A DNA stretch of 32,000 nt from Xanthomonas campestris pv. campestris str. ATCC 33913. Its GTDB lineage: Bacteria > Pseudomonadota > Gammaproteobacteria > Xanthomonadales > Xanthomonadaceae. Position 1 is the first letter of the stretch; each line of letters opens with the position of its first letter. Location of the stretch: the NCBI RefSeq assembly GCF_000007145.1, contig NC_003902.1:2246497-2278496 (forward strand). Reading direction: 5' to 3'. This document shows positions 11,719 through 28,697 of the stretch, in pieces. Under the pieces are notes generated by a model, which was not told where the DNA came from, made no database searches, and was given only the letters and a program-made list of their open reading frames with translations. A program made the translations under genes and the position numbers.

Positions 11719-12090
11719 TTACAGCGGCATGTTCATGACGTCCTGATAAGCCTGGACGAGACGGTTGCGGACTTCCACGGTGGCGCGGAAGGCCACCTGG
11801 GACTGCTGGGAGGCGACCATCACCCGTGCCAGATCGGCACTGGGGTCACCCATTTCGAACGCCTTGGCCAGCGCGCCGGACTTCTGCTGGGCCTCGTTCA
11901 CGCCGCCGATGGCGCCGCGCAAGGTCTCGCTGAAGCTCGGTGCCTGCGTGGCCGGCGTGCCTTGCGCGCCAGCCAGTCCCTGGATCTGATTTCCGCGCGC
12001 AGCATCGGCCACCTGACCCATCGGGCCTTGGCCCATCTGTGTCTGGTAGCTGCGGATCTGCGAAAGAATTGAGGTAACGGAGTCGCTCAT
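11719..12090 (-). CDS. fliE: Flagellar hook-basal body complex protein FliE (123 aa from MSDS...)
   Basis: ORF 11719..12123(-) has the conserved C-terminus ...LARVMVASQQSQVAFRATVEVRNRLVQAYQDVMNMPL. I chose the ATG at 12088-12090. An in-frame ATG at 12112-12114 (MPPWLTAPMSDS...) coincides with the predicted sigma-54 +1 and cannot be excluded. Confidence 0.88.
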   Translation of the reverse strand: MSDSVTSILSQIRSYQTQMGQGPMGQVADAARGNQIQGLAGAQGTPATQAPSFSETLRGAIGGVNEAQQKSGALAKAFEMGDPSADLARVMVASQQSQVAFRATVEVRNRLVQAYQDVMNMPL

Positions 12091-12196: not shown

Positions 12197-12230
12197 CAAG
12201 CGGTTGCAAGCGGTTGCAAGCGGTGGCAAT
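12197..12230. repeat. Tandem 10-bp repeat, caagcggttg x3 plus a partial copy; candidate upstream activator site for the fliE promoter
   Basis: The sequence reads caagcggttg|caagcggttg|caagcggtgg|caat. The period is 10 bp, about one helical turn, and the repeat sits 60-105 bp upstream of the sigma-54 promoter at 12125-12138. Confidence 0.8.
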
Positions 12231-12363
12231 CAGTAGCGCCGGAGAGACAGCTCGGATGGCCGTGGCCACCGCGCACGTCCGATTCAGACCTCAAGACCGG
12301 CAGGCGATGCGCCGGCCGGCCATGCAGATGCGGCCGGCGCCCGGCCGCCAGCTTCATGCCGAT

Positions 12364-15300
12364 TCAGTCGGGCAACCACTGCGTCAGCCAATGCGCAGCG
12401 TGGTCCTGGTCCAGCATCCAGTCGCGGTGTACTGCCGCACGCAGTGCATCGCCGGCGGCAGCGGCAGCGTCCAGATCGTGGGTATGCATGCGGATTGCCT
12501 CAACCCAGTCCCGGTAACGCGGGCGCACGCGGGTCACAGGGAGCGAACCCTGGTAGGGGCGCACGTCGCTGCATACCACCGGGAAGCCGCAGGCACCGTA
12601 CTCCAGCAGGCGCAGGTTGCTCTTGCACTGATTGAACAGGTTGTCTTCCAGCGGCGCCAGCGCCAGGTCAAGGTTCAGTCCGGCCAGCTTTGCGGGGTAG
12701 AGATCGATAGGCACGCCGGGGTGGAACTCGTGGACGTAAGGCTGCAGGCTTTCCGGGCACATGCCGAAGAACACCCACTCCACCTCTGTGGCCAGCGCCT
12801 TGATCACTTCCTCGATCATTTCCAGGTCACCCTGGTGGCCGCCGCCGCCGCCCCAGCCAACGCGCGGGCGCTTGCCCTGGCGGCGCTGGCCTTGCCGGTC
12901 CCGCCACCACGGTAGCGGCAGGCGGTTCTCCACGACCCGGGTGTCGCGGTGCAGGCCGTGCAATGCCTCCGCCAGCGCCGGTGTCGAGACGACGAAGCGG
13001 TCCACCATCGCCAACGATCTGCGCATGCTGCGCATGATGTCGTTGGGAATGGCATCACGATGCAGGCTCTTGCGCGGCACGTTGGGCAGGTAGTCGTCCA
13101 GTTCCGCCACCTTGAAGCAGTTGCTGAAGCGGGTGCCACGTTGCTGCGGCTCCAGGTTGTAATCAAACATCTGCCGTTGCAGCACCAATGTCTCGGGCTG
13201 GAGGCGCTGCATCTCCACGGGCGACAGGTAGCGCAGCGACCAGATCGCGTCGGCCAGTCCGGCCGCCTGCATGGCGTGCACGGGCTGGATGATGCGGTAG
13301 TTGCCGCAGCCAGTCTGGTCTGCAGTCATCGCCAGCACGGTGGGTAGCGGACGCCAACGCAACGGGCGCCAGGTCAGACTGTTGTTATCTTCCACCTGGA
13401 AGGCGTCGCCATTCAGGTTCAGATTGCGGTTGTATGCCGGGTCGTTTGCGATCCAGGGGAGCCATTTGCGGTACATGGCCTCTTGTTCGGCCTCGAAGCG
13501 CTGCACCTTGGCCAGCTGCGGGGCGGTATCCACCTGTGTCTGGCTGACGCTGCCCTCATGCAGCAGCACAGCATGTGGTGTCCAGACCACCAGATAACCG
13601 GCCTGACGGATCTTCAGGCACAGATCCACATCGTTGTAGGAAACCTTGAAAACATCCTCGTCCAGGCCACCGACTTCGGCGTAGAGGCTGGCGCGTACCA
13701 TCATGCATGCACCTGTGACCGCACTGTAGTTCTGATCCACCTGCAGCCGGTACATGTAACCGGGTGCATCCAGCGCCTGGCCGTTGAAGGGATGCTCGGC
13801 GGGTCCACGCAAGCCCAGCACCACGCCGGCGTGCTGGACGGTGCCGTTGGGATACAGCAGCTTTGCGCCAACCACGCCCACCTCCGGCCGTTGCGCGTGG
13901 TTGAGCAGCGCATCCAGCCAGTTCTCCTGCAGGATCGCGGTGTCGTTGTTCAGCAGGACCAGATACTCGCCCCTGGCATGCTGCGCCGCCAGGTTGTTCA
14001 TGGCTGCATAGTTGAACGGATGCGGGTAGCGCAGCACGCGCAATTGCGGGCTGTCCATTGCTTCGATGCCATCCAGCCACTGACATGCGTCGGCGTCGGT
14101 GCTGCCGTTGTCGACGATCAGTAGCTCGTAGTTGGAATAGGCGGTCTTTTCGAGCAGCGTCTCCACGCAGCGCTGCAGCATGCCGAGCTGGTTCTTGGTG
14201 GGGACGATGATCGACACCCCCGGCGTGTGCGCATGCCCGTACTCGATGCGATAGCAGCCGGGCAGGTGGCTGTGGATCTTTGCCTGTGCGTAGCTGCGGT
14301 GGTGCAGGTGACGCAGCAAGGCCTGCTGCTCGGACGGGTGCGACCAGACGCGCGAAGTGGGACTCACCAGCAGCGGTTCGTGGACGTGGCCCAGACCGTC
14401 AAGGCCACCGGCGTCGATCAGGCGCAGCAGCAGATCCAGTTCCGCCGCGTCGGTCAACGCCGGGTCCAGTCCGCCGGCTGCAACGAAGATCTCGCGCCTG
14501 TAGAGCCAGTTACGGACCATGCTGGCCGGCATCGACAGCAGCAGATCCAGGTTGAAGTCCGGACGCAGCAGCGCCGACAGTTCGCCGTCTTCGGCACGGA
14601 TCATTTCATCGGCATAGACCGCGCGCAGGCTGTCGTCGCCGAGCAGATCCAGCGCGACGGTGAGCAGGCCCGAGGCGGTGAAGGTGGCGCCAGCCTTGAC
14701 CGGCAGTAGCCAGTCGGCTGACTCGGTGGCGGACAGCGCATTGATTGCCTCGAGTTGCGCCAGTGAGCCCTCGTGGCGGTGCAGCTGGATCGAGAACGGC
14801 GCTGTTTGCGGCGTGACCACGGCCAGTGGGCTTAGGATACGCAGCTGTATCCGAGAATACTGGCAGGCCTGCGCGATCAGGCTCTGGACGGTGGCGTCGA
14901 TCGCCTCTGCGTCGCCATGACGATCCAGCAACACGATGCAGATCAGGGGGCCGCCGCCGGCGGCCTGAAAGCGCGCCTCGATCAGCCGGTGCTGGGCGTT
15001 GTCGGGCACGCGCTGATCCAGCCAATTGCGCAGGATCTCGCCACTGCTCGGCAGAACCGGCGGCAGACCGCGAAGCATGCGATCCACGCGCACGCCCAGA
15101 TCCAGCGCAACGAAGGGCTGCGCGCCCTCCAGCGTCCTGACCCCGACCTGGTGGTTGTCCACGGCGCGCTGCCAGCCCAGTTCGCCAATAGCTGTGCGGA
15201 ACGCGGTGAAACCGGCACGGCCGATGTCGGGCTTCAGACGCGCGGCATTGCTGACCTGTCCGGCGGAAATGCGGAAGCACGACAATGGACTTTGCAACAT

Positions 15301-15963
15301 GGCCAGGTGGCCCTTGCGCAGCAAATTGACGTACATGGTGAGGTCGCCCAGCCACTGGATACGCCGCCCCTGCAGCGAGAACGGCGCATCGGCATGGGGG
15401 CGCATCTGCGCGGTGCGGAACATCACCGTGCTGGGTTCGCCGATAAAGTTCAAGGTGCGCTCTGCCAGAAAGGAGACCAGCTCCTGGCCGTGCACACAGA
15501 CATCGCCCTCGAACGGAATTGCGTTTGCGCCCGATTCCGGCAGCAGAGCGCCGCGCTCATCAATCAGTTGGCGGCGCGATGAGACCAGTGCTACTTCCGG
15601 GTGCCGGTCGAGCACGTCGGCCATTGCGGTTAGGCAACCGGGCAGCAGCACGTCGTCATCGCAGAGGAATTTGAGGTAGGTGCCACGTGCCTGTGCGATG
15701 CATCGGCCGAAGTTGCCCACTTCCAGCAGCGGCTGCGGGTTGCGCAGATAGCGAATCTGCGCACCGTGTTCCGAGTCCAGGAAATTTTTCACGACCTCGG
15801 CGACGGCATCGGTCGGACAGTCATCGCAGATCAGCAGTTCCAGGTCGTGCATGTCCTGCGCGAGCACGCTGTCCAGGGCGGTTTTCAGGAAAGTCGCTCT
15901 GTATGCGGGAACCGCCACGGTGACCCGCGGCGCAGTGGCGGTGGCAGCAAATGAAGTGGGCAT
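12364..15963 (-). CDS. Large multi-domain glycosyltransferase (~1199 aa): GT2, GT2-like, GT2 and a C-terminal GT-B-like domain; probable flagellin glycosyltransferase
   Basis: This lies inside ORF 12364..16143(-), and I chose the ATG at 15961-15963 (MPTSFAATATAPRVTVAVPAYRATFLKTALDSVLAQ...LLICDDCPTD = GT2 module 1). The middle module has ...LICIVLLDRHGDAEAIDATVQSL...AVYADEMIRAEDGELSALLRPDFNLDLLLSMP...AAELDLLLRL. Module 3 has VSIIVPTKNQLGMLQRCVETLLEKTAYSNYELLIVDNGSTD...YLVLLNNDT...VSYNDVDLCLKIRQAGY. The C-terminus has ...RVGWGGGGGHQGDLEMI...NLRLLEYGACGFPVV, which looks GT-B/GT1-like. Confidence 0.85.
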   Translation of the reverse strand: MPTSFAATATAPRVTVAVPAYRATFLKTALDSVLAQDMHDLELLICDDCPTDAVAEVVKNFLDSEHGAQIRYLRNPQPLLEVGNFGRCIAQARGTYLKFLCDDDVLLPGCLTAMADVLDRHPEVALVSSRRQLIDERGALLPESGANAIPFEGDVCVHGQELVSFLAERTLNFIGEPSTVMFRTAQMRPHADAPFSLQGRRIQWLGDLTMYVNLLRKGHLAMLQSPLSCFRISAGQVSNAARLKPDIGRAGFTAFRTAIGELGWQRAVDNHQVGVRTLEGAQPFVALDLGVRVDRMLRGLPPVLPSSGEILRNWLDQRVPDNAQHRLIEARFQAAGGGPLICIVLLDRHGDAEAIDATVQSLIAQACQYSRIQLRILSPLAVVTPQTAPFSIQLHRHEGSLAQLEAINALSATESADWLLPVKAGATFTASGLLTVALDLLGDDSLRAVYADEMIRAEDGELSALLRPDFNLDLLLSMPASMVRNWLYRREIFVAAGGLDPALTDAAELDLLLRLIDAGGLDGLGHVHEPLLVSPTSRVWSHPSEQQALLRHLHHRSYAQAKIHSHLPGCYRIEYGHAHTPGVSIIVPTKNQLGMLQRCVETLLEKTAYSNYELLIVDNGSTDADACQWLDGIEAMDSPQLRVLRYPHPFNYAAMNNLAAQHARGEYLVLLNNDTAILQENWLDALLNHAQRPEVGVVGAKLLYPNGTVQHAGVVLGLRGPAEHPFNGQALDAPGYMYRLQVDQNYSAVTGACMMVRASLYAEVGGLDEDVFKVSYNDVDLCLKIRQAGYLVVWTPHAVLLHEGSVSQTQVDTAPQLAKVQRFEAEQEAMYRKWLPWIANDPAYNRNLNLNGDAFQVEDNNSLTWRPLRWRPLPTVLAMTADQTGCGNYRIIQPVHAMQAAGLADAIWSLRYLSPVEMQRLQPETLVLQRQMFDYNLEPQQRGTRFSNCFKVAELDDYLPNVPRKSLHRDAIPNDIMRSMRRSLAMVDRFVVSTPALAEALHGLHRDTRVVENRLPLPWWRDRQGQRRQGKRPRVGWGGGGGHQGDLEMIEEVIKALATEVEWVFFGMCPESLQPYVHEFHPGVPIDLYPAKLAGLNLDLALAPLEDNLFNQCKSNLRLLEYGACGFPVVCSDVRPYQGSLPVTRVRPRYRDWVEAIRMHTHDLDAAAAAGDALRAAVHRDWMLDQDHAAHWLTQWLPD

Positions 15964-15986
15964 CGGGATCGTCAAAGGTCGGGCGC

Positions 15987-17120
15987 TCAGGCAACGCACT
16001 TGCGGAGAAAGAGGGTGCCGGCGGTGACGAAGGCGCAGTCGAATCCGCCACCGACGAGCAGGGCATCGCCAGCGCGGCATGGGCCGTCGCCGAATGCCCA
16101 GACGTAGTCGTCCAGCAGTAGCCAACCGCCGGGGCGCATCCACGGCAGCCAGGTGGCGATGTCGGCGACGACCTCGGCATGGGCGTGGTTGCCGTCGATA
16201 TGCAGCACTGCGATGGTTCCCCGCACTGCGACCGGTCGCAGCGGCCCGCTGTCCAGCGAGCCGCTGGCTGCGGCTTGGCGGTAGACCGAGATGGCTGCCT
16301 GCGAGGGCAGGCGGATGCAGCCCATGCCAGGGATTTGCGAAGCAGCCGCCAGGAAATTGTCGAAGATCTGCGCAAAATCCACCACCACATCGTTTCCGTT
16401 CAGGATCGCGGCGGCGTCGCCCTGGTCGCGTGCCTGCGCAAAGCCCCAGGCATCCACGCAGATGGTAGAGCCAAGCGCGTAGCGGTGTGCCAGGCTACCA
16501 AGCGCCAGCGCTGATCTTCCATACAGACAGCCGATCTCCACGACGTCACCGGGGGGCGCAATCCGCGCCAGCGCGCAAAGCGCAAGCAGCTTCGTCTCGT
16601 CGCACTGTCCGGGTGTGCGCAAAAATTGGCGGTGCAGGCCAGCCGCCTCGTGCACCGTCAGCGCGGCCGCCGGCGCCGGGGCATCGGGTAGCTGCCAGGG
16701 AGACGGATCTTCGATCGCCGCTTCGGCCCACTGCCGGCTGCGGGCAAATGCAGCGCGCTCTGTCTCATGCGGACTGGGCGTGCACAGCCTTAAAGGCTGC
16801 CCCGTGCCCCAGTCCTTCGCCAGTAAATGGTCCAGATAGGCCCAGACGCCCTGGTGCGCGCTGAACACGTCAGTAACACCATGCGCGGCGACAAGACACC
16901 GCAGGGCAGGTACGAACGCCGGGTCTGTGATGTAGGGCAGGGGCAGAACCGCTTCCACGCCGAACAGGCGATCCTCGGTGGGCTCGGAACTGGCACCGAG
17001 CACACGCTGGCCCAGCGAGCGGGCGACCGCGATCCAGGCTGCCGATGCGTCCAGGTTGACCGGAAAAACCAACACGGTCGGTACGCCTGGGGCCGGCGTG
17101 CGCGCCACCGGGGCGTTCAT
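15987..17120 (-). CDS. Two-domain protein (~377 aa): an N-terminal Rossmann-like domain of unknown function fused to a class I SAM-dependent methyltransferase (Methyltransf_24/CmcI-like)
   Basis: This lies inside ORF 15987..17222(-). The ATG at 17118-17120 overlaps the upstream stop (ATGA). The C-terminal half has GDVVEIGCLYGRSALALG (SAM motif I) and ...IAVLHIDGNHAHAEVVADIATWLPWMRPGGWLLLDDY. The N-terminal ~170 aa (PTVLVFPVNLDASAAWIAVARSLGQRVLGASS...) loosely resemble the pre-ATP-grasp N-domain of the neighbouring ligase. Confidence 0.7.
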   Translation of the reverse strand: MNAPVARTPAPGVPTVLVFPVNLDASAAWIAVARSLGQRVLGASSEPTEDRLFGVEAVLPLPYITDPAFVPALRCLVAAHGVTDVFSAHQGVWAYLDHLLAKDWGTGQPLRLCTPSPHETERAAFARSRQWAEAAIEDPSPWQLPDAPAPAAALTVHEAAGLHRQFLRTPGQCDETKLLALCALARIAPPGDVVEIGCLYGRSALALGSLAHRYALGSTICVDAWGFAQARDQGDAAAILNGNDVVVDFAQIFDNFLAAASQIPGMGCIRLPSQAAISVYRQAAASGSLDSGPLRPVAVRGTIAVLHIDGNHAHAEVVADIATWLPWMRPGGWLLLDDYVWAFGDGPCRAGDALLVGGGFDCAFVTAGTLFLRKCVA

Positions 17121-17857
17121 CGGACGCAGCCGATGCACAGCAGCCGCTCGCTGGTGTCCAGCAAGCGGTGGCCGGAGGCCTTGAGATAGGCACGTAACAG
17201 CCAAGGCTGGGTCAGTCCCCAACGGATCAGGGCATCCTCGTGGCGGCGCTTGTACTTGCCGACCGGGATCACGACCACCTCGTCGCAGACCTCACGCATG
17301 TGCGCGGTGATCTCCGCAACGCTGAAGAACCGGATGTCGTAGAGAGGATCGGTACGCTTCATGGTGTCGAAGTAGGCGAGGAACCGGGCGTTGTGCCGGT
17401 TATGCACGGTGGCGATCATGCGATGGGCGGTGACCCGGGCCTGTTCCCTGGCCAGGGTCTGGATCTGGTCATCGGAAAACAGCACCCAGAAGCCGTTGTG
17501 GTAGGTGACATCGACCGCGCGGTCGGGTAAGGCCATCTCGAAGGCGCTCATGCGGGCGATGTGCGTGGCGAATTGCGGAAACGCTTGCTTTGCCCGTTGC
17601 ACGGACTCCATGGAGAAATCCATGCCGGAGCAGTTCACGCCCATCGACCGCAGTGAAGCCATATCGCGGAAGCTGCCGGCAGCAAGCTCCAGCACGCTGT
17701 GCTCATCGCGTTCCAGCAGGGCGTGGATATAGTGAGCATGGCGACGATCGTGCTGATAGCGGTCGAAGATCTGGGTCCACTTGCGGTCCCATTCGTCGGC
17801 ACTGGAGGTCGGATTCAAGTTAATCAGTGGCATGCGATGACGCTCGGGAAAGGGCAT
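17117..17857 (-). CDS. Class I SAM-dependent methyltransferase-like protein (238-246 aa)
   Basis: ORF 17117..17857(-) contains ...HSVLELAAGSFRDMASLRSMGVNCSGMDFSMESVQRAKQAF...VDVTYHNGFWVLFSD, i.e. motif I-like ELAAGS, a post-I acidic MDFS, and motif II/III-like strands. The start is ambiguous between the ATG at 17857 and the ATG at 17833; both overlap the upstream gene. Confidence 0.65.
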   Translation of the reverse strand: MPFPERHRMPLINLNPTSSADEWDRKWTQIFDRYQHDRRHAHYIHALLERDEHSVLELAAGSFRDMASLRSMGVNCSGMDFSMESVQRAKQAFPQFATHIARMSAFEMALPDRAVDVTYHNGFWVLFSDDQIQTLAREQARVTAHRMIATVHNRHNARFLAYFDTMKRTDPLYDIRFFSVAEITAHMREVCDEVVVIPVGKYKRRHEDALIRWGLTQPWLLRAYLKASGHRLLDTSERLLCIGCVR

Positions 17858-18863
17858 GGACAGAGGATGAGACCGGCATGCGCTCGGCGGATAGTTCGAC
17901 GATGTGCGCGCTCCGGGTGAACACGCGCGCCTGCGTCATCTGTGGCATCGGTGGCAGCGGGCTGCCGGTGAAGCAGGCCAGGTGGGCGGCGGGCATGTCG
18001 TAACCGGCAAGCACCGAGAAGCCCACGCCTGCGGAGAAGCGTGGGTTTACATCCATCAGCAGGTAGCGGTCATCAAGGCGCAGGAACTCGATGTTTGTGC
18101 AGCCATGCAGATCGAGCGTGGCGGCGACATGCAGGGCCTGTGCTTCCAGGTCCGGGGCGACGGCAACGCGCACGGTGGTACCAGCACCGTTGGCAGTACG
18201 CAGTAGTTCCTCACGGCACAGACACTGCCCTGCACCGCTGACACGCTCGCGTACCACGTCGGCGACGAACACTGCGCCCGGGCGGTAGGGCTGCAGCAAG
18301 TAGTCGTCTGGGTCCAGGTGCCGGTGCGCGGACGCAAGATCCTCGGCGTCGTGCAGGATGCGCTGGCCCTGGCTGCTGCGCCCGCGACGCGGTTTGACCA
18401 GCAGTGGGAACGCGGGCAGGTCGGCCACCTGACAGAGCGGAAAGGAAGGAATCGCCGCCACCCGGGGATCGCCGGAAAAACGCGCGTGCAGCGCAAGTTT
18501 GTCGCGCGCCAGCGCGATCGCATCCGCGTCGGAGGTGCAGATGGTCACGCCGTGATTGGCAAAGCGCGCTTTGTGCGCGGCCAGCACATCCACCTCCGGG
18601 TCGGTTAGCGGCATGACCAGGCCGATCTGCTCGCGCAAACAGACCCCCAGTAGCGCATCGGCGTAGTCATCGGCGGCCTGGCCGGGCGGCAGGGCAACGA
18701 AATCGTCAACCATGGTCGAGGCCGCCACCCAGTTGCGCGGATGGATGTCGCTACCGACGATCCGGGCGTCACTGCAGGCACGAAGCGCGCTCAGCACGCT
18801 GACACCCGACATCGAGCCGATTGACGTCACCAAAATGCCGCGTCTGATGGACTCAGGACGCAT
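17820..18863 (-). CDS. ATP-grasp domain ligase (347 aa; carbamoyl-phosphate-synthase-L-chain-like)
   Basis: ORF 17820..18863(-) has a Rossmann-like N-domain (ILVTSIGSMSGVSVLSALR...IVGSDI), then ...FPLLVKPRRGRSSQGQRIL...YLLQPYRPGAVFVADVV...GCTNIEFLRLDDRYLLMDVNPRFS. The K-loop, the E/N metal ligands and the terminal (M)D(V)NPRF are typical of ATP-grasp enzymes. Confidence 0.8.
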   Translation of the reverse strand: MRPESIRRGILVTSIGSMSGVSVLSALRACSDARIVGSDIHPRNWVAASTMVDDFVALPPGQAADDYADALLGVCLREQIGLVMPLTDPEVDVLAAHKARFANHGVTICTSDADAIALARDKLALHARFSGDPRVAAIPSFPLCQVADLPAFPLLVKPRRGRSSQGQRILHDAEDLASAHRHLDPDDYLLQPYRPGAVFVADVVRERVSGAGQCLCREELLRTANGAGTTVRVAVAPDLEAQALHVAATLDLHGCTNIEFLRLDDRYLLMDVNPRFSAGVGFSVLAGYDMPAAHLACFTGSPLPPMPQMTQARVFTRSAHIVELSAERMPVSSSVHALSRASSHATD

Positions 18864-20103
18864 TGGCGATCGTGTCCACCACCGTCTGGACCACCTCGTC
18901 AGGAAGGCCAGGATAGATCGGCAGGCAGATCACCCGGTCTGCGGCGCTGTAGGTATTTGGGAGCCCGGCCGGGCAGGCCGATTGCAACGCGCTATACATT
19001 GGAAAGCTGGTGATCGGCGGGTAAAAGTAGCGACGTGTATGGATATTCTTGCGCTTGAACAGTGCGTACAGCGCATCGCGATCGAGCGGGTAGCCGGCCT
19101 CGACAAAGATGGGGAAATAGGATGCATTGTGGCGTTTGGCACTGCTGGTCAGGCAGGTAATGCCGCACACCTGCGTCAGGTGCTGCCTGTAAAAAGCCGC
19201 GATGCGGCGACGCTCGGCCAGTACCTCGTCGATGTGCTTGAGCTGGAGCAGGCCGAAGGCGGCGTTGATCTCCGACATCTTGCCGTTGATGCCTGGTTCC
19301 ACCACCGTGGTCTCGTCGACGAAGCCGAAGTTCTTGAGATGGTCGATGCGCTGCTTGGTCTCTGCGTCCGGGCTGACTATGGCGCCACCCTCGAACGTGT
19401 TGAAGACCTTGGTGGCATGAAAGCTCAGCACCGATAGGTCGCCGTGACGCAGGATGCTGCCGCCGGAGTCGGTCACTCCGAAGGCATGCGCCGCGTCGTA
19501 GATCACCTTCAGCCCATGACAATCGGCAATGGCCTTGATCGCCGCCACGTCGCAGGGATTGCCATAGCAGTGCATCGGCAGGATCGCGGTGGTGCGCGAG
19601 GTGATCGCTGCCTCGATCCGGTCCGGGTGCAGATTCAGCGTCTCAGGATCGATATCTACAAATACCGGCTGTAGCCGGTTCCACAGCAGGGAGTGCGATG
19701 TCGCGACGAAGCTGTAGGGCGTCGTGATGACCTCGCCGGCAAGGTCTAGCGCCTGCAGCCCGGTCATCAGCGCTAGGGTACCGTTCGCAAACAGGGAGAC
19801 GTGCTTCAGCCCCAGGTAATCGCCCAGGCAACGTTCCAGTTCCTGATGACAGGGACCGTTGTTGGTGAGCACCTTGCGCTCCCAGATGCCTTCCAGATAA
19901 GGCAGGAACTCATGCAGCGGCGGAAGATAGGGCTGGGTGACGAAGATCGGATCCCGGCCGGCCTGCGGGTCGCAGGCCGGCGGTGACAGCGTGGCTGGCC
20001 CTTCCCCGTTGGTCCCGGCTACCGGAGACGACGCCTCCGTGTAGTGCGAGCCGGCGGCCGCAGGCTCGTGCGATACGGGGCGATGGTCGAGCGCTCGATA
20101 CAC
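18853..20103 (-). CDS. DegT/DnrJ/EryC1/StrS-family PLP-dependent sugar aminotransferase
   Basis: ORF 18853..20142(-) contains ...IFVTQPYLPPLHEFLPYLEGIWERKVLTNNGPCHQELERCLGDYLG...SLFANGTLAL...ITTPYSFVATSHSL...DAAHAFG...LSFHATKVFNTFEGGAIV (the catalytic Lys is in HATK). The track start at 20142 is a TTG lying inside the sigma-54 promoter. I chose the GTG at 20101-20103, preceded by GGAGacagcc. The true start could be further downstream. Confidence 0.85.
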   Translation of the reverse strand: MYRALDHRPVSHEPAAAGSHYTEASSPVAGTNGEGPATLSPPACDPQAGRDPIFVTQPYLPPLHEFLPYLEGIWERKVLTNNGPCHQELERCLGDYLGLKHVSLFANGTLALMTGLQALDLAGEVITTPYSFVATSHSLLWNRLQPVFVDIDPETLNLHPDRIEAAITSRTTAILPMHCYGNPCDVAAIKAIADCHGLKVIYDAAHAFGVTDSGGSILRHGDLSVLSFHATKVFNTFEGGAIVSPDAETKQRIDHLKNFGFVDETTVVEPGINGKMSEINAAFGLLQLKHIDEVLAERRRIAAFYRQHLTQVCGITCLTSSAKRHNASYFPIFVEAGYPLDRDALYALFKRKNIHTRRYFYPPITSFPMYSALQSACPAGLPNTYSAADRVICLPIYPGLPDEVVQTVVDTIANAS

Positions 20104-20146
20104 GGCTGTCTCCGGCTGAGCCGGCAGGAGCCGGCTGTGCAATCCT

Positions 20147-20160
20147 GCAAGTGGCGTGCC
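20147..20160 (-). promoter_or_regulatory. Sigma-54 promoter in front of the sugar-tailoring/glycosyltransferase operon
   Basis: The minus strand reads gtttaGGCACgccacTTGCAggatt, 58 nt downstream of the fleQ stop. The predicted +1 is about 20135, giving a 32-nt leader that carries GGAG before the GTG at 20103. Confidence 0.65.
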
Positions 20161-20217: not shown

Positions 20218-21708
20218 CTAGTTTGCCAGCTCGGTCTGCTCGCGGTCGATGCCGTACTTGCGCAGCTTCTCCACCAAGGTGGTGCGGCGCAGGCCGAGCA
20301 GTTGCGCGGCGTGGGCGACCACGCCTTGGGTGCGTTCCAGTGCCTCGTTGATCAAGGCCAGCTCGATGTTGGCCATATGGCCGCGCAGGTCGATGCCATC
20401 GTCGGGCAGGCTGGAGGCTGTCAACGGTTCGGCATCGGCGTGCGCGGTGGCCGGCTGCAGGGTGACCACGTTGCTCGGCAAGGCGGCAACCTCGCCATGT
20501 GGCGCGACCAGCGCCGGCTCCGGCGGCAGTTCCACCGGGATCGACGAAGCGAAATCACCGCGATAACGCGCCGGCAGGTCCTGCACCCGCACCAGCCCAC
20601 CGGGATGCAGCACCGCCAGGCGCTCCACCAGGTTGGTCAGTTCGCGCACATTGCCCGGCCAGTCGTAGCTGCGCAGCGCCTGCAAGGCCTCGTCGGCAAA
20701 GCGCACTTCGCCGCGGCCGGTGCGGGCCAGCTGCCCGGCAATGGTCTGCACCAGGATCGCCAGGTCGTCCACGCGTTCGCGCAAGGCCGGCATCTCGATC
20801 GGGAACACGTTAAGGCGATAGAACAGGTCCTCGCGGAACTGGCCGTCGCTGATGCGGGTTTCCAGATTACGGTGGGTCGCGGCGATCACGCGCACGTTGC
20901 AGCGGATGGTCTGCCCGCCGCCCACGCGCTCGAAGCTGCGCTCCTGCAGCACACGCAGCAGCTTGACCTGCATCGGCAGGCTCATGTCGCCGATTTCGTC
21001 CAGCAGCAGCGTGCCGCCTTCGGCCATTTCGAAGCGGCCCTTGCGGGTGGTCAGCGCGCCGGTGAAGGCGCCTTTTTCGTGACCGAACAATTCGCTTTCC
21101 AGCAGGTCCGGCGGAATCGCGCCGCAGTTGATGGCCACGAACGGCCCATCACGGCGCGGCGAATGCTGGTGGATGGCGCGCGCCACCACTTCCTTGCCGG
21201 TGCCGGATTCGCCCAGCACCAAAACGGTGGTGTCGAACGCGGCCACCTGGTCGATCAGGCGGCGCAGGCGGGTGACCGCCTCGCTGTTGCCGGTCGGGCC
21301 GGTGTCTTGCTGCACGCCGGCCTGGTGTTCGGCGTCCAGGCGTTTGAGGCTGGCACGGCGCAGCAGCGCCTCCAGCTGCGCATGCCGCAGGGGGGTATCC
21401 AGCGCCCACACGTTGGCCTCATGCAGGCCGTGCGCCTGTGCAAACGCCGACGGGCTGCCTTCCATCAGCAGCACCGGCGGCGGCAGCTTGGCATCGGCCA
21501 GCCAGTCGAAGAACTTGTCGGCCTGCGCAGCGTCCTGCGCCGAGCCCACCATCACCGCCATCCACTCATCGTGGCGGTGGCGGCCAGGATTGATGTCGGC
21601 GCCGTCGGTGACCCAGCGTGGGTTGAAGTCCATGAACTCGAGCAACGACACCGTGCGCTCGGCGCGCACGGCATCGCTGTCGATTAACAGAATGCGGGAC
21701 TCACTCAT
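20218..21708 (-). CDS. fleQ: Sigma-54-dependent flagellar master activator FleQ (496 aa; degenerate REC, AAA+ and Fis-type HTH domains)
   Basis: ORF 20218..21708(-) contains VLVLGESGTGKEVVARAIH (Walker A), ESELFGHEKGAFTGA (the GAFTGA sigma-54 contact loop), LLLDEIGDM (Walker B), and a C-terminal HTH (AAQLLGLRRTTLVEKLRKYGI). The N-terminal receiver-like domain has no Asp at the usual acceptor position (AVMVGS). Confidence 0.95.
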   Translation of the reverse strand: MSESRILLIDSDAVRAERTVSLLEFMDFNPRWVTDGADINPGRHRHDEWMAVMVGSAQDAAQADKFFDWLADAKLPPPVLLMEGSPSAFAQAHGLHEANVWALDTPLRHAQLEALLRRASLKRLDAEHQAGVQQDTGPTGNSEAVTRLRRLIDQVAAFDTTVLVLGESGTGKEVVARAIHQHSPRRDGPFVAINCGAIPPDLLESELFGHEKGAFTGALTTRKGRFEMAEGGTLLLDEIGDMSLPMQVKLLRVLQERSFERVGGGQTIRCNVRVIAATHRNLETRISDGQFREDLFYRLNVFPIEMPALRERVDDLAILVQTIAGQLARTGRGEVRFADEALQALRSYDWPGNVRELTNLVERLAVLHPGGLVRVQDLPARYRGDFASSIPVELPPEPALVAPHGEVAALPSNVVTLQPATAHADAEPLTASSLPDDGIDLRGHMANIELALINEALERTQGVVAHAAQLLGLRRTTLVEKLRKYGIDREQTELAN

Positions 21709-22092: not shown

Positions 22093-23496
22093 TTATCCCG
22101 CCCGGGCAAGCAGCGGTTTGGTGGTGCGGCGGCGCTCGCGAGCCGGGGCGATATCGAGTTGTTCGCGGTACTTGGCCACGGTCCGTCGCGCAATATTAAC
22201 GCCCTGGCGCGACAACAGCCCGGCGATGGCTTCGTCGGCCAGCGGGCGTCCGGCCGGTTCGCTTTCAATCAGGCGGCGCACCATGGCCTTGACGGCCTGG
22301 CCGGAGACGCTGGCGCCTTCCAGCCGCACGGCGAAGAAATGCTTCAGTTCGAAGGTGCCGCGCGGGGTCTGGATGTATTTGCCCGTGGTAATACGGGAGA
22401 TCGTCGACTCGTGCATGCCGATCTCGTCGGCGATCTCCTTGAGCGTCAGCGGCGCCATGGCTTCTTCGCCGCGGGCCAGGAAGGCAGCCTGGCGCTCGAC
22501 GATGGCACGGGTGGCGCGCAGCAGGGTCTCGTAGCGCATCGACAGGCCGCGGGTCAGCCAGCGGGCTTCCTGCAGCATGTCGCGCAGCGGCTGGGCGGCG
22601 TCGCCGGCTTCGGCCAGGGCGCGTTCGTGCACCGGATTGATGCTCACCCGGTGGGTGGTGGCCGGATTCAGCGCCACCCGCCAGCTGCCATCGGCGTGCC
22701 AGGCCAGCACGTCCGGGATCACGCTGGCATTGGTTTCCTGCAACAGGTCATCGCCAGGCCGCGGCTGCAGCGACAGGATCAGCCGCACGGCTTCGCGCAC
22801 ATCGTCCACATCGGCATCGTGGGCGCGTGCCAGCAGGGCGTAGTCGTGGCCGGCCAGCAGGTCCAGGTCGCCGGCCAGGATGCGGCCAGCCAGGTGGCGC
22901 GCAGGCACGCGGCCGGGCAGGGCGGCCAGCTGCGCCTGCAGGCATTCGCGCAGATCGCAGGCCGCCAGCCCGGCCGGGTCGCCGTGCAACAGCCGCTGGC
23001 GGATTGCCTCGGCGGCATCCACGCTGATGCCCAAGCGGGTAGCGGCCAGTTGTTGCAGGGTGGGCAGGGCTTCGGTCAGGTAGCCGGCGTCGTCGGTCTG
23101 TTCCAGCCAGAACGCGGCGGTGCCGAGGTCGGTTTCGTCCAGGTCCAGCGCCAACTCGCGCAGGATGCGCACATGCGGGTCGGTGGATTCGCCGGCGGCC
23201 ACGCGCTGCATGCGGTCGTCGTCTTCGCCATTCCAGCTGCTGCTCTGCACCTCCCACATGGTGCTTTCGGGCAACTCGTCGAAGGCGGCCATGTCGGTGG
23301 CGCCATCCTCGGCGCTGGGAGCCTCGTCGCTGCTGTCGGCCAGCTCTTCCAATTCCAGTAATGGATTGGTTTCCAGGGCGCGACGGATCTCCAGTTCCAG
23401 CTGCATGCCGTCCAGTTGCAACAGACGGATCGACTGCAACAGCTGCGGGGTGAGGTGCAGTTGTTGGCCCAGCTGGGCAGAGATGGTCGTCTTCAT
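22093..23496 (-). CDS. rpoN2: RNA polymerase sigma-54 factor, flagellar-cluster paralogue (467 aa)
   Basis: This lies inside ORF 22093..23556(-). From the ATG at 23494-23496 it reads MKTTISAQLGQQLHLTPQLLQSIRLLQLDGMQLELEIRRALETNPLLE (region I). It has an acidic region II and a C-terminal ...ISRITTGKYIQTPRGTFELKHFF (RpoN box ARRTVAKYR present). Confidence 0.95.
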   Translation of the reverse strand: MKTTISAQLGQQLHLTPQLLQSIRLLQLDGMQLELEIRRALETNPLLELEELADSSDEAPSAEDGATDMAAFDELPESTMWEVQSSSWNGEDDDRMQRVAAGESTDPHVRILRELALDLDETDLGTAAFWLEQTDDAGYLTEALPTLQQLAATRLGISVDAAEAIRQRLLHGDPAGLAACDLRECLQAQLAALPGRVPARHLAGRILAGDLDLLAGHDYALLARAHDADVDDVREAVRLILSLQPRPGDDLLQETNASVIPDVLAWHADGSWRVALNPATTHRVSINPVHERALAEAGDAAQPLRDMLQEARWLTRGLSMRYETLLRATRAIVERQAAFLARGEEAMAPLTLKEIADEIGMHESTISRITTGKYIQTPRGTFELKHFFAVRLEGASVSGQAVKAMVRRLIESEPAGRPLADEAIAGLLSRQGVNIARRTVAKYREQLDIAPARERRRTTKPLLARAG

Positions 23497-23721
23497 GGAG
23501 GCGCTTTCCGGAAGGCGCCGCAAGCGTGCGGCGATGGAATGCATCTTGCAGGACACAGCGACGGGTTTCGAATCAGGGAGTCAGGTGAGGTGGCTCATGA
23601 TTTTCCTGACACCTAGTGGGGAATTCCCCTACAGCTAGTGCGAGCTCAAGCGTGCCCGCCGGAATTCCGTCACTGTTTTGTGGCAGCGGCCGCGTTGCGC
23701 GGCGCTGCCCGGCTGGATCGG

Positions 23722-27401: not shown

Positions 27402-28601
27402 TTACTGCAGCAGGCTCAGCACGTTCTGCGGAACCGACTTGGCCTGGGCCAGCATCGCGGTACCCGCCTGCTGCAGGATCTGCGTACGGGTCAGCTCGGC
27501 GGTGGTCTTTGCGTAGTCGGTATCGGCGATCCGGCTGCGCGAGGCCGTCAGGTTCTCCGAAGTGGCGGCCAGATTGGCGATGGTGGAGGTGAAGCGGTTC
27601 TGCACCGCACCCATGTCGGCGCGCGAGGAGTTGACCGATGTCAATGCCTTGTCGACGATTTCCAAGGCTTTCTGGGCGCCCGAGAATGTGGAGATATCCA
27701 GGCTGCTGAGGGTGGAAGCGGTGGAGCCGGAAGCGGCCGAGGCGGTCTGGATGCCTGCACCGGCGGTGATGCCCGCGGCGCCGGAGGTGCCGCCGGACAG
27801 CGAGGTGAAGTCCTGGCCAGCCTTCAGCGACTCGAGCTTCACGTTGCCGCTGGTGTCGATCGAGGCATACATGCCGGTCTGATCCAGCTTATCGTTGATC
27901 GCCGAGGCAACTTTCTTGTTGATGTCTGCCGCAGTATCGCCGGAAGCGATCTTGATATCGGCGACGGCAACGCTTTTTGCAGCGCCGGAGGCATCCTTGA
28001 AGGCCAGAGTGATACCGCTGAGCGAACCCGACGCGGTGGCCGCGCCGGTGACGCCAGCGCCGGACACCGATGCTGCGAAGTTGGCCTTGCCTAACGAATC
28101 GACATTGGCGTCGACGATGCTGTTGATGCCGATGGTCTGGCCAGCGTCGGCACCCACCTGGAACAGCGCGCCGGAGAAGTCGCCGTTCAACAGCTTGGTG
28201 CCGTTGAAGCTGGTCTGGTTGGCGACGCGATCGATTTCCGAGGTGAGCTGCTTGACTTCGGAGTTCAGTGCTTCACGGTCGGTGGCCGAGTTGGTGGCGT
28301 TGGCTGACTGCACCGACAGCTCACGGATACGCTGCAGGTTGTTGCCGATTTCGACCATCGCGCCTTCGGCGGTCTGGGCCAGTGAGATACCGTCGTTGGC
28401 GTTGCGCGAGGCAACGTCCAGGCCGCGGATCTGCGTGGTGAAGCGCTCTGAAATCGCCAGGCCCGCGGCATCGACCGAGGCGCTGGTGATGCGCTTGCCC
28501 GAGGACAGCTGCTGAATGCTCAGCGCCATGCTCGAACTGTTGGTGTTGAGGTTACGCTGAGCGTTCAGCGACATTACGTTGGTGTTGATTACCTGTGCCA
28601 T
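27402..28601 (-). CDS. fliC: Flagellin FliC (399 aa)
   Basis: This lies inside ORF 27402..28634(-). The ATG at 28599-28601 is preceded by AGAGGAGA. The product begins [54 protein letters not shown]... and ends ...[70 protein letters not shown] (D0/D1 domains). Confidence 0.97.
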
Positions 28602-28697
28602 TTTGATATCTCCTCTAAGCGATTTTTCCGGCAAGGGGGCTTGCCTGGAGCCTCCGCAGGGGGGCCATCAAGTTGGCCGTTGCCGCTGCTGAGATGA

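Follow-up and report, generated by a model that had tools for sequence, protein, structure and literature searches.

Why should five genes of sugar and methyl-group chemistry stand between fleQ and fliE, inside an otherwise canonical flagellar gene cluster? The question is raised by positions 12364 to 20160 of a 32,000-nt stretch of the genome of Xanthomonas campestris pv. campestris (Xcc) ATCC 33913 (NC_003902.1, positions 2,246,497 to 2,278,496), here called the window, whose numbering is used throughout; X. campestris is the agent of cabbage black rot. We consider it highly probable that this block is the flagellin O-glycosylation operon of X. campestris, a flagellar class II unit whose own sigma-54 promoter lies shortly after fleQ. 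The locus and its large transferase are already known.

Open reading frame (ORF) calls on the window fill the fleQ-fliE interval with five minus-strand genes, which we name A to E in order of transcription. Gene A (18853-20103) has a GTG start and a GGAGA ribosome-binding site and encodes a DegT-family, pyridoxal phosphate (PLP)-dependent sugar aminotransferase of 416 aa that resembles DesI and VioA. Gene B (17820-18863) encodes an ATP-grasp carboxylate-amine ligase of 347 aa, composed of a PylC-like N domain and an ATPgrasp_Ter domain, and gene C (17117-17857 or 17117-17833, from ATG 17857 or ATG 17833) a class I S-adenosylmethionine-dependent methyltransferase of 246 or 238 aa. Gene D (15987-17120; 377 aa) combines a predicted pre-ATP-grasp-like N domain with a TylF/MeT1-like sugar O-methyltransferase C domain, and gene E (12364-15963; 1199 aa) encodes FGT1, the large flagellin glycosyltransferase. 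A and B overlap by 11 nt, B and C by 38 or 14 nt, and C and D by the ATGA tetranucleotide, and a 23-nt gap separates D from E. The original prediction, made without database searches, had described a block at 12364-20160 with these gene kinds in this order; ORF coordinates and Pfam bear it out, and all four junctions are exactly as it gave them. It had also noted that no nucleoside diphosphate-sugar dehydratase or nucleotidyltransferase is present, and no such Pfam domain occurs in the five proteins. Genes for glycan biosynthesis and transfer are embedded here in a flagellar gene cluster, the arrangement by which flagellin glycosylation islands are recognized.

The evidence that carries this assignment comes from protein E, which is identical at 1197 of 1199 residues (99.8%) to BAN67064.1, deposited as [quoted passage not shown] The 90% cluster of E holds BAN67064.1 together with the proteins of ATCC 33913 (AAM41217) and 8004 (AAY49313). 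According to a review, the FGT1 mutant of XcA (X. campestris pv. campestris) is affected in flagellin glycosylation, its flagellin being unglycosylated, and is less virulent on cabbage (Ichinose et al. 2013 via PMC8364246). Because E is almost identical to FGT1 and because the FGT1 mutant has this phenotype, the reading of the block as a flagellin glycosylation island, which the original prediction had proposed by analogy, is supported, and the locus itself is already in the literature. E also has the size and domain content of Fgt/VioT/OrfN-type transferases (1199 aa, multidomain, GT2-containing), and its kinship lies with them: beyond the near identity to BAN67064.1, it is 57% identical to the Fgt of Acidovorax avenae over residues 25-1199, and its residues 311-1199 are 49% identical to the transferase of the Pseudomonas yangonensis island. 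The 90% cluster of B includes the B100 protein CAP51583, and those of B, D, and E draw in hundreds of X. campestris contigs, with members from pv. raphani and pv. incanae as well. Across 21 kb, the window matches X. campestris contig JAUION010000006.1 (GCA_034553355.1) at 99.87% identity, with gene order kept.

Several observations weigh on the other side. The FGT1 phenotype rests on the review and on the database name of BAN67064.1, and the ATCC 33913 and 8004 records label E “O-antigen biosynthesis protein.” Genes A, B, and C recur in loci that adjoin pilin genes and bear a wzx flippase gene, so that this cassette alone is no proof of a flagellar role. Neither rmlA nor rmlB lies within the window. 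Protein A scores 292 bits with its best NCBIfam model, the DesI equivalog TIGR04427, against a cut-off of 650 bits, so that its sugar could be another 4-amino or 3-amino 6-deoxyhexose. Finally, two of the enzymes in the studied island of A. avenae K1 do not behave as orthologues of their Xcc counterparts: Fcs (451 aa) is only 27% identical to B, and Fmt has no match to C at E < 1e-3.

The label of E, the generic nature of GT2 domains, and the A-B-C cassettes that adjoin wzx flippase and glycosyltransferase clusters would all suit a lipopolysaccharide (LPS) O-antigen or exopolysaccharide (EPS) locus that happens to lie among flagellar genes and acts on lipid-linked glycans. We find this hardly credible. 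The near identity of E to a flagellin glycosyltransferase whose mutant is affected in flagellin glycosylation, and the zero Pfam matches among the island proteins to flippase, polymerase, initiating phosphotransferase, or membrane-protein families, led us to reject it; the promoter, moreover, is of the sigma-54 flagellar type, and homologues of E stand beside fliC in Pseudomonas and Paracidovorax. The original prediction had named as a refuting outcome that homology searches would place these genes in an LPS or EPS pathway with no flagellar linkage in other genomes; what the searches returned were homologues of B, D, and E with fliC as a neighbour, in metagenomes as well as in Pseudomonas, Thauera, Pleionea, and Paracidovorax.

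Pfam recognizes two Glycos_transf_2 domains in E and a weak Glyco_trans_1_2 match at its C-terminus. The earlier description of E as a four-module enzyme holds up under profile-profile comparison with hhalign, in which modules 1, 2, and 3 are all GT-A-like (module 1 versus module 3, 97%; module 2 versus module 3, 96.6%) and module 4 stands apart. Module 1 (residues 1-300) is a GT2 domain with an intact DDD motif; module 2 (residues 311-575; window 14239-15033) is a degenerate GT-A-like domain without a Pfam match; module 3 (residues 576-860) is again GT2, with an NND motif; and module 4 (residues 861-1199) has only a weak GT-B-like match and is the most conserved of the four (median identity of 59% in 76 homologues). 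Because A-G stands at the DXD position of module 2, in E and likewise in the family consensus, this module is probably a noncatalytic pseudo-glycosyltransferase domain. Relatives of E have residues 311-1199 in common, and their N-termini are swapped or extended, with GT1-like modules or with fusions to methyltransferase, DegT, or nucleotidyltransferase domains. We infer that E builds the glycan on Ser/Thr residues of FliC, with the conserved core (modules 2 to 4) serving in flagellin recognition and the first linkage and the variable N-terminal GT2 module adding a further, lineage-specific sugar. The presumptive acceptor, the flagellin gene fliC (27402-28634, minus strand), is given here as its longest ORF, with Pfam domains Flagellin_N and Flagellin_C; the public call is 399 aa (L081).

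How is the block expressed? A pattern search finds a sigma-54 (-24/-12) promoter element, GGCACGCCACTTGCA, at 20146..20160 on the minus strand, 58 nt past the fleQ stop, and the end coordinate of the block, 20160, is the start of this element. The underlying pattern, GGCAC-N5-TTGC, has 4 matches in the window against 0.85 expected. A near-identical element lies upstream of fliE, and between 11.6 and 20.4 kb these two, one at the operon start and one before fliE, are the only sigma-54 elements found, internal ones not having been searched for exhaustively. Comparable elements follow fleQ in six of the island-bearing loci that we compared (L001 to L004, L012, and L086). The genes that would act on the promoter are close at hand: fleQ (20218-21708, minus strand; Pfam FleQ, Sigma54_activat, and HTH_8) encodes a sigma-54 enhancer-binding protein directly upstream of the island, and rpoN2 (22093-23556, minus strand; Pfam Sigma54_AID, Sigma54_CBD, and Sigma54_DBD) encodes the flagellar sigma-54 factor. 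The gigX flagellin glycosylation genes of Xanthomonas oryzae pv. oryzae (Xoo) are RpoN2/FleQ-regulated (PMC8657755), and by analogy the fleQ product would be the activator of the island promoter and the rpoN2 product the factor that reads it.

The original prediction took the overlapping or nearly abutting junctions as an argument for one transcription unit. Those junctions, together with the one sigma-54 promoter at the operon start, are consistent with a single unit, as are two null results: across 8.8 kb, sigma-70-like sites number 0 against 1.3 expected (in a search that did not cover internal sigma-54 or sigma-28 promoters exhaustively), and intrinsic terminator-like sites in the block are at chance level (6 against 4.0 +/- 2.0 expected), so that we rejected both internal sigma-70 promoters and internal terminators as none stood above chance. 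Single transcription is not thereby proven. The 23-nt gap upstream of E would leave room for the view that the five genes are not one operon and that the transferase or methyltransferase genes are transcribed on their own from promoters inside the block; we think this unlikely, given that three of the four junctions overlap, that the 8.8 kb hold no sigma-70-like site, and that the sigma-54 elements of the 11.6- to 20.4-kb interval stand only at the operon start and before fliE. The gigX1-10 genes of Xoo are reportedly cotranscribed.

Two repeats lie at the fliE end of the block. Positions 12309-12340, 24 nt 3' of the E stop, form a perfect GC-rich inverted repeat with 10-nt arms, a 12-nt loop, and no T tract; the terminator search did not score it as an intrinsic terminator, and it is possibly an operon-end hairpin. 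At 12197-12236, 60 to 100 nt upstream of the fliE sigma-54 promoter, three repeats of 10 nt stand in tandem (CAAGCGGTTG on the plus strand and CCGCTTGCAA on the minus strand), and their unit equals the -12 half of the fliE promoter (CCGCTTGCA). An array that acts as an enhancer or binds FleQ is one possible reading of them, and the relic of a duplication is another. At the other end of the block, the start of A is uncertain. The public gene call begins at CTG 19989 and gives 378 aa, and residues 1 to 38-50 counted from GTG 20103 (window 19989-20103) are of low complexity and poorly conserved; because TTG 20142 falls within the sigma-54 promoter, we begin A at GTG 20103, with CTG 19989 as the alternative.

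What sugar might the first four genes make? Protein A is a full-length match to DegT_DnrJ_EryC1 (PF01041; E = 1e-100) and carries an SFHATK PLP-lysine motif in its translation; it has, in other words, the DegT fold and the PLP-binding lysine of the DesI/VioA type. Its best PDB match is DesI (2po3; E = 7e-67), the second-best reaching 3e-43. These similarities, along with the choice of TIGR04427 as best model, support the predicted aminated 6-deoxyhexose. The precursor dTDP-4-keto-6-deoxy-D-glucose would come from RmlA and RmlB, the products of genes at another site in the genome, and Xcc itself carries rml genes. A, acting in the manner of DesI as a putative dTDP-4-keto-6-deoxyglucose 4-aminotransferase, would then aminate C4 to give dTDP-viosamine. 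Membership in the DesI/VioA group is unproven, and viosamine is our best guess for the product. Genes of the A type, with 61 to 76% identity to A, stand first in other kinds of island, namely the gigX-type (L003) and L001-type islands and those of Pseudomonas and A. avenae, which points to a common amino-sugar core.

Protein B would use ATP to couple the 4-amino group with a carboxylic acid, very probably an amino acid. It matches PylC-like_N, ATPgrasp_Ter, and ATP-grasp_3 (PF21360, PF15632, and PF02655) above their cut-offs and is termed carbamoylphosphate synthase-like (“CPS-like”) by NCBIfam. Its family is large, with members of about 320 aa, and K157, E259, D271, N273, and R275 are invariant in 32 of them, as befits an ATP-grasp ligase; a PDB sequence search returned one relative, the uncharacterised CPS-like protein 2pn1. 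A DegT gene is close by, and often immediately upstream, in most of 80 metagenomic loci that hold a relative of B, and this proximity suggests that B acts on the product of A; N-acylation by an ATP-grasp enzyme is plausible, and it would replace the acyl carrier protein (ACP), β-ketoacyl-ACP synthase III (KAS III), reductase, and acetyltransferase route of vio- and gigX-type islands. Protein C (Pfam Methyltransf_25/11), for which the PDB sequence search gave no informative relative, would add a methyl group, on nitrogen or on oxygen.

Protein D would O-methylate a hydroxyl of the sugar. Its Pfam match, Methyltransf_24, covers the C-terminal half only, and the original prediction accordingly spoke of an unknown domain fused to a methyltransferase. 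That domain can now be named. In the AlphaFold2 model of D (pLDDT of 91; 92 for the N-terminal 140 residues modelled alone), the best Foldseek matches of the N domain (approximately residues 1-140) are the N-terminal domains of the ATP-grasp enzymes 2pn1 and PylC, and hhalign aligns the N domain of the D family (window 16700-17120) with that of the B family (18460-18863; B residues 1-135) at a probability of 89% (E = 2e-6), by which we class it as a predicted pre-ATP-grasp-like domain. The C domain finds MeT1 (6g7d; E = 4.5e-9; TM score [TMt], 0.72), as well as SpnH, CalS11, MycF, and NovP, and so has the fold of TylF/MycF/MeT1-like sugar O-methyltransferases; the invariant residues E195, G197, G201, D223, D309, N311, and D337-D338 of D are, as judged by sequence, consistent with an S-adenosylmethionine motif and metal-binding acidic residues. 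The likeness of the two N domains hints at a shared substrate-binding module, and because the N domain of D resembles the substrate-side domain of B, D may recognize the same nucleotide sugar as B. The D family is widespread and two-domained, with members of about 370 aa, and in Thauera and Pleionea full-length homologues have fliC on one side and a DegT gene on the other.

Tentatively, then, the product of A, B, C, and perhaps D would be a 4-amino-4,6-dideoxyhexose that is aminoacylated by the ATP-grasp enzyme and then methylated, a sugar undescribed for proteobacterial flagellin, and the cassette would be a portable donor module used by different transferases (Fgt-type and GT41/TPR-type) and for different filaments (flagellin and type IV pilin); we offer this as a conjecture rather than an expectation. 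The flagellin may instead be glycosylated through a chemistry other than aminoacyl-viosamine, a minority prospect that nevertheless deserves weight: A could make another amino sugar; B could form an amide on the carboxylate of a sugar, produce a dipeptide or acid in free form, or attach an acyl group that is not an amino acid; and C and D could methylate rhamnose and not the amino sugar. The shortfall of A against the DesI cut-off leaves room for this, as do the uncharacterised state of the one solved relative of B, the many carboxylates and amines that ATP-grasp ligases accept, and the unresolved roles of the corresponding Clostridium difficile enzymes. The best fold matches of D, too, include the rhamnose O-methyltransferases SpnH and CalS11, and the flagellin of Pseudomonas syringae B728a bears a methylated deoxyhexose (PMC3927599). 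Set against these points, DesI leads the other solved relatives of A by more than 20 orders of magnitude in E-value, most of the 80 loci have A and B side by side or close together, and B, C, and D hold the slot that viosamine N-acylation and methylation genes occupy in sister islands.

The notion of a portable donor module comes from the wider distribution of these genes. Among the 80 metagenomic loci with a relative of B, a C-type methyltransferase follows B in about 28, and flagellin genes lie within 10 kb in five, among them L094, which reads fliC-A-B-C-E. Homologues of C (57 to 60% identity) come right after B in P. yangonensis and Xenophilus. In P. yangonensis the order is flgL, then A-B-C-(D)-oxidoreductase-E-family transferase, then fliC; the D homologue there (L084, 10816-11660) is broken over three frames, with a single 217-aa ORF called. 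In Xenophilus (L085, 4455-10680) and in L143 (4409-14195), A-B-C adjoins a type IV pilin gene, a wzx flippase gene, and glycosyltransferase genes, along with a protein of 618 to 664 aa without a family match and, in L143 alone, a PilC-like (T2SSF) gene. Loci of this kind suggest that the same donor sugar serves pilin or lipid-linked glycans, and the presence of A-B-C beside both flagellin and pilin genes makes of it a portable sugar-donor module that is not strictly flagellar. In another metagenomic locus (L103, 9977-20583), B, C, and A adjoin fliA, fliC, and fliD, and the transferase is a 1122-aa fusion of methyltransferase, tetratricopeptide repeat (TPR), and GT41 domains and not of the Fgt type, so that the sugar cassette pairs with unrelated flagellin transferases; a comparable TPR/GT41 pairing, with D, occurs in Thauera (L087).

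Might the nucleotide sugar or the transferase of X. campestris itself also serve another acceptor, type IV pilin or some other surface protein for instance, as part of a general surface-filament module? The pilin, wzx, and 618- to 664-aa protein genes beside A-B-C in Xenophilus and L143, with the PilC-like gene of the latter, invite the idea, which we nonetheless judge very unlikely here: the X. campestris cassette is fixed between fleQ and fliE, next to an Fgt-type transferase and behind a flagellar promoter, and a Pfam scan of the window genes found no pilin, flippase, or oligosaccharyltransferase gene.

The flagellin operon of Xcc is one of several kinds of insert at this site. We surveyed the site by a FleQ-anchored scan of species-representative genomes, in which X. 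campestris is not among the matches listed, and among those matches the fleQ-fliE interval is variable. Some are free of any island, with fliE about 90 to 300 nt after fleQ in Pseudoxanthomonas, Luteimonas, Lysobacter, and Stenotrophomonas pictorum. Xanthomonas sp. NCPPB 1128 (L003) carries genes for a DegT protein, KAS III, a short-chain dehydrogenase/reductase (SDR), a hexapeptide acyltransferase, a Rieske oxygenase, a second hexapeptide protein, an FkbM methyltransferase, and a transferase, and a third type, in a member of the Lysobacteraceae (L001), consists of DegT, GFO/IDH/MocA oxidoreductase, FkbM methyltransferase, and transferase genes. In these two islands, in which both ends were read, the first gene is a homologue of A (66% and 76%) and the last encodes a transferase of the E family; L002 and L004, too, have an A homologue (65 to 66%) at their head. 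None of these other islands (L001 to L004) has a homologue of B, C, or D, and in L003 the slot of B-C-D is taken by the KAS III, SDR, hexapeptide acyltransferase, Rieske oxygenase, and FkbM methyltransferase genes.

Besides X. campestris, one X. arboricola strain was found to carry the five-gene set, and within X. campestris the same five genes fill the fleQ-fliE gap of pv. campestris ATCC 33913, 8004, and B100 and of pv. raphani. Between the window and pv. raphani CP156001.1 (L086), the flanks are mostly 98 to 100% identical, falling to 91 to 93% across fliH-fliI, and the island is 79 to 89% identical; the change is abrupt at both ends, near 12.1-12.3 kb and near 20.2-20.5 kb. At least two divergent alleles of the five-gene island thus exist in X. 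campestris, as would fit replacement by recombination. As far as alignments can tell, a divergent island between near-identical flanks is the pattern of a recombining surface-antigen locus, with the fleQ-fliE gap as its apparent swap site. Flagellin glycans, as a review passage and a study of A. avenae relate, hide the immune epitope of flagellin from plant recognition and affect virulence (PMC8364246, PMC4622738), and this shielding would make the locus a virulence-relevant site of surface variation in a major crop pathogen. On the conjecture of a portable donor module offered above, the two X. campestris alleles would encode antigenically distinct glycans on which plants or phages exert selection. 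The A homologue of pv. raphani (L086, 6004-7262) is split over two frames by a 1-nt shift in a G-run just after the TFEGG motif and is uncalled, which makes it a pseudogene unless the shift is an assembly error in the homopolymer.

Outside the island, the window holds a flagellar cluster of the canonical Xanthomonas kind, every gene scanned there being flagellar or regulatory. Toward low coordinates the island is flanked by fliP, fliO, fliM, fliK, fliJ, fliI, fliH, fliG, fliF, and fliE (the last at 11719-12090), and on its other side by fleQ, vemR, rpoN2, genes for a LuxR-type response regulator and a PilZ protein, fliS, fliD, fliC, flgL, and flgK. Base composition does not set the island apart. 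The original prediction held stretches of it to be less GC-rich than the flanking fli genes, and both of its 60-nt counts (32/60 and 44/60) are right but unrepresentative: the whole island has a GC content of 64.4%, the window 65.6%, and the right flank 64.9%; 13% of same-size windows match the island or fall below it; and GC at third codon positions, 0.84 in flanking genes, is just 0.05 lower in the island (0.79). With both values so near those of the flanks, composition is not a marker of the island, and we rejected the notion of a compositionally foreign insert.

How does the island compare with systems that have been studied? Our literature search found no description of Xcc genes A to D or of an Xcc flagellin glycan structure, and nothing that joins an ATP-grasp enzyme with viosamine or with a flagellin glycosylation island under those terms. 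One likeness, which offers an analogy for the N-acylation proposed for B, is with C. difficile type B flagellin, whose peptidylamido sugar requires an ATP-grasp enzyme, the mutant in that enzyme lacking the peptidylamido-sugar cap (PMC5207246). The CDR20291_0244-0247 genes share with Xcc the presence of a DegT-type aminotransferase and a CPS-like ATP-grasp enzyme in one flagellin locus (PMC5207246), although C. difficile is Gram positive and has other transferases, a FemAB-like protein, an ornithine cyclodeaminase, and a sulfonated sugar; the two are likened here by gene kinds.

The islands of Pseudomonas resemble it as well. Those of P. syringae pv. tabaci (vioA, vioB, vioM, vioR, vioS, acp, and vioT, with fgt1 and fgt2) and the orfA-orfN genes of P. 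aeruginosa PAK share with Xcc a VioA-type aminotransferase, a methyltransferase of about 240 aa, and transferases of about 1,170 aa (VioT and OrfN; VioT has 1,173 aa) (PMC3927599). The P. syringae vio genes build N-(3-hydroxybutanoyl)-2-O-methyl-viosamine, and the O-linked glycan of these systems is capped by N-acylated, O-methylated viosamine (PMC3927599). Their acylation is ACP-dependent (3-hydroxybutanoyl), unlike what is expected of the Xcc island; they are located in the flgL-fliC interval or in a viosamine island set apart; and they use three separate large transferases to the one of Xcc.

Within Xanthomonas, the gigX island of Xoo is embedded in the flagellar regulon (PMC8657755), as that of Xcc would be. 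The gigX1-10 series is said to start with a sugar transaminase and to end with a methyltransferase and a glycosyltransferase, with ACP, KAS III, reductase, acetyltransferase, and Rieske dioxygenase types reportedly in the middle, and the gene set of L003 presumably corresponds to it. This gigX-like island fills the same site downstream of fleQ and has homologues of A (66% identical) and E (40% identical) but none of B, C, or D, in whose place Xcc has an ATP-grasp enzyme and two methyltransferases. Conversely, Pfam finds in the window none of the ACP, KAS III, ketoreductase, and acetyltransferase genes of gigX- and vio-type islands, which L003 has at the same site. The middle genes of L003 match those of the P. 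syringae vio pathway (PMC3927599).

For the particular combination of enzymes, which the original prediction could not map onto a characterised system, there is a studied genetic precedent in A. avenae K1. Its island encodes the glycosyltransferase Fgt, the methyltransferase Fmt, the “carbamoylphosphate synthase” Fcs (an ATP-grasp protein), and the sugar transaminase Fst (PMC4622738). Deletion of Fgt yields deglycosylated flagellin, and joint deletion of Fmt, Fcs, and Fst yields flagellin about 730 Da lighter and abolishes the evasion of rice immunity (PMC4622738). Gene order and gene kinds are those of Xcc, namely transaminase, CPS-like ATP-grasp enzyme, methyltransferase, and giant Fgt, and the corresponding locus of Paracidovorax avenae (L169) reads fliC, fliC, DegT, ATP-grasp (451 aa), methyltransferase, transferase (1464 aa). 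Between Fst and A the identity is 70.5%, which, with the kinship of Fgt and E, marks the outer genes as orthologues. The A. avenae island differs in lying beside fliC and motA and not between fleQ and fliE, in having no D gene, and in the N-terminal methyltransferase fusion of its Fgt. On these comparisons the two islands have a common architecture filled with middle enzymes of different subfamilies. Closest of all is the FGT1 locus of XcA, which is the same gene in the same species and the same flagellar context, E differing from its product at 2 of 1199 residues.

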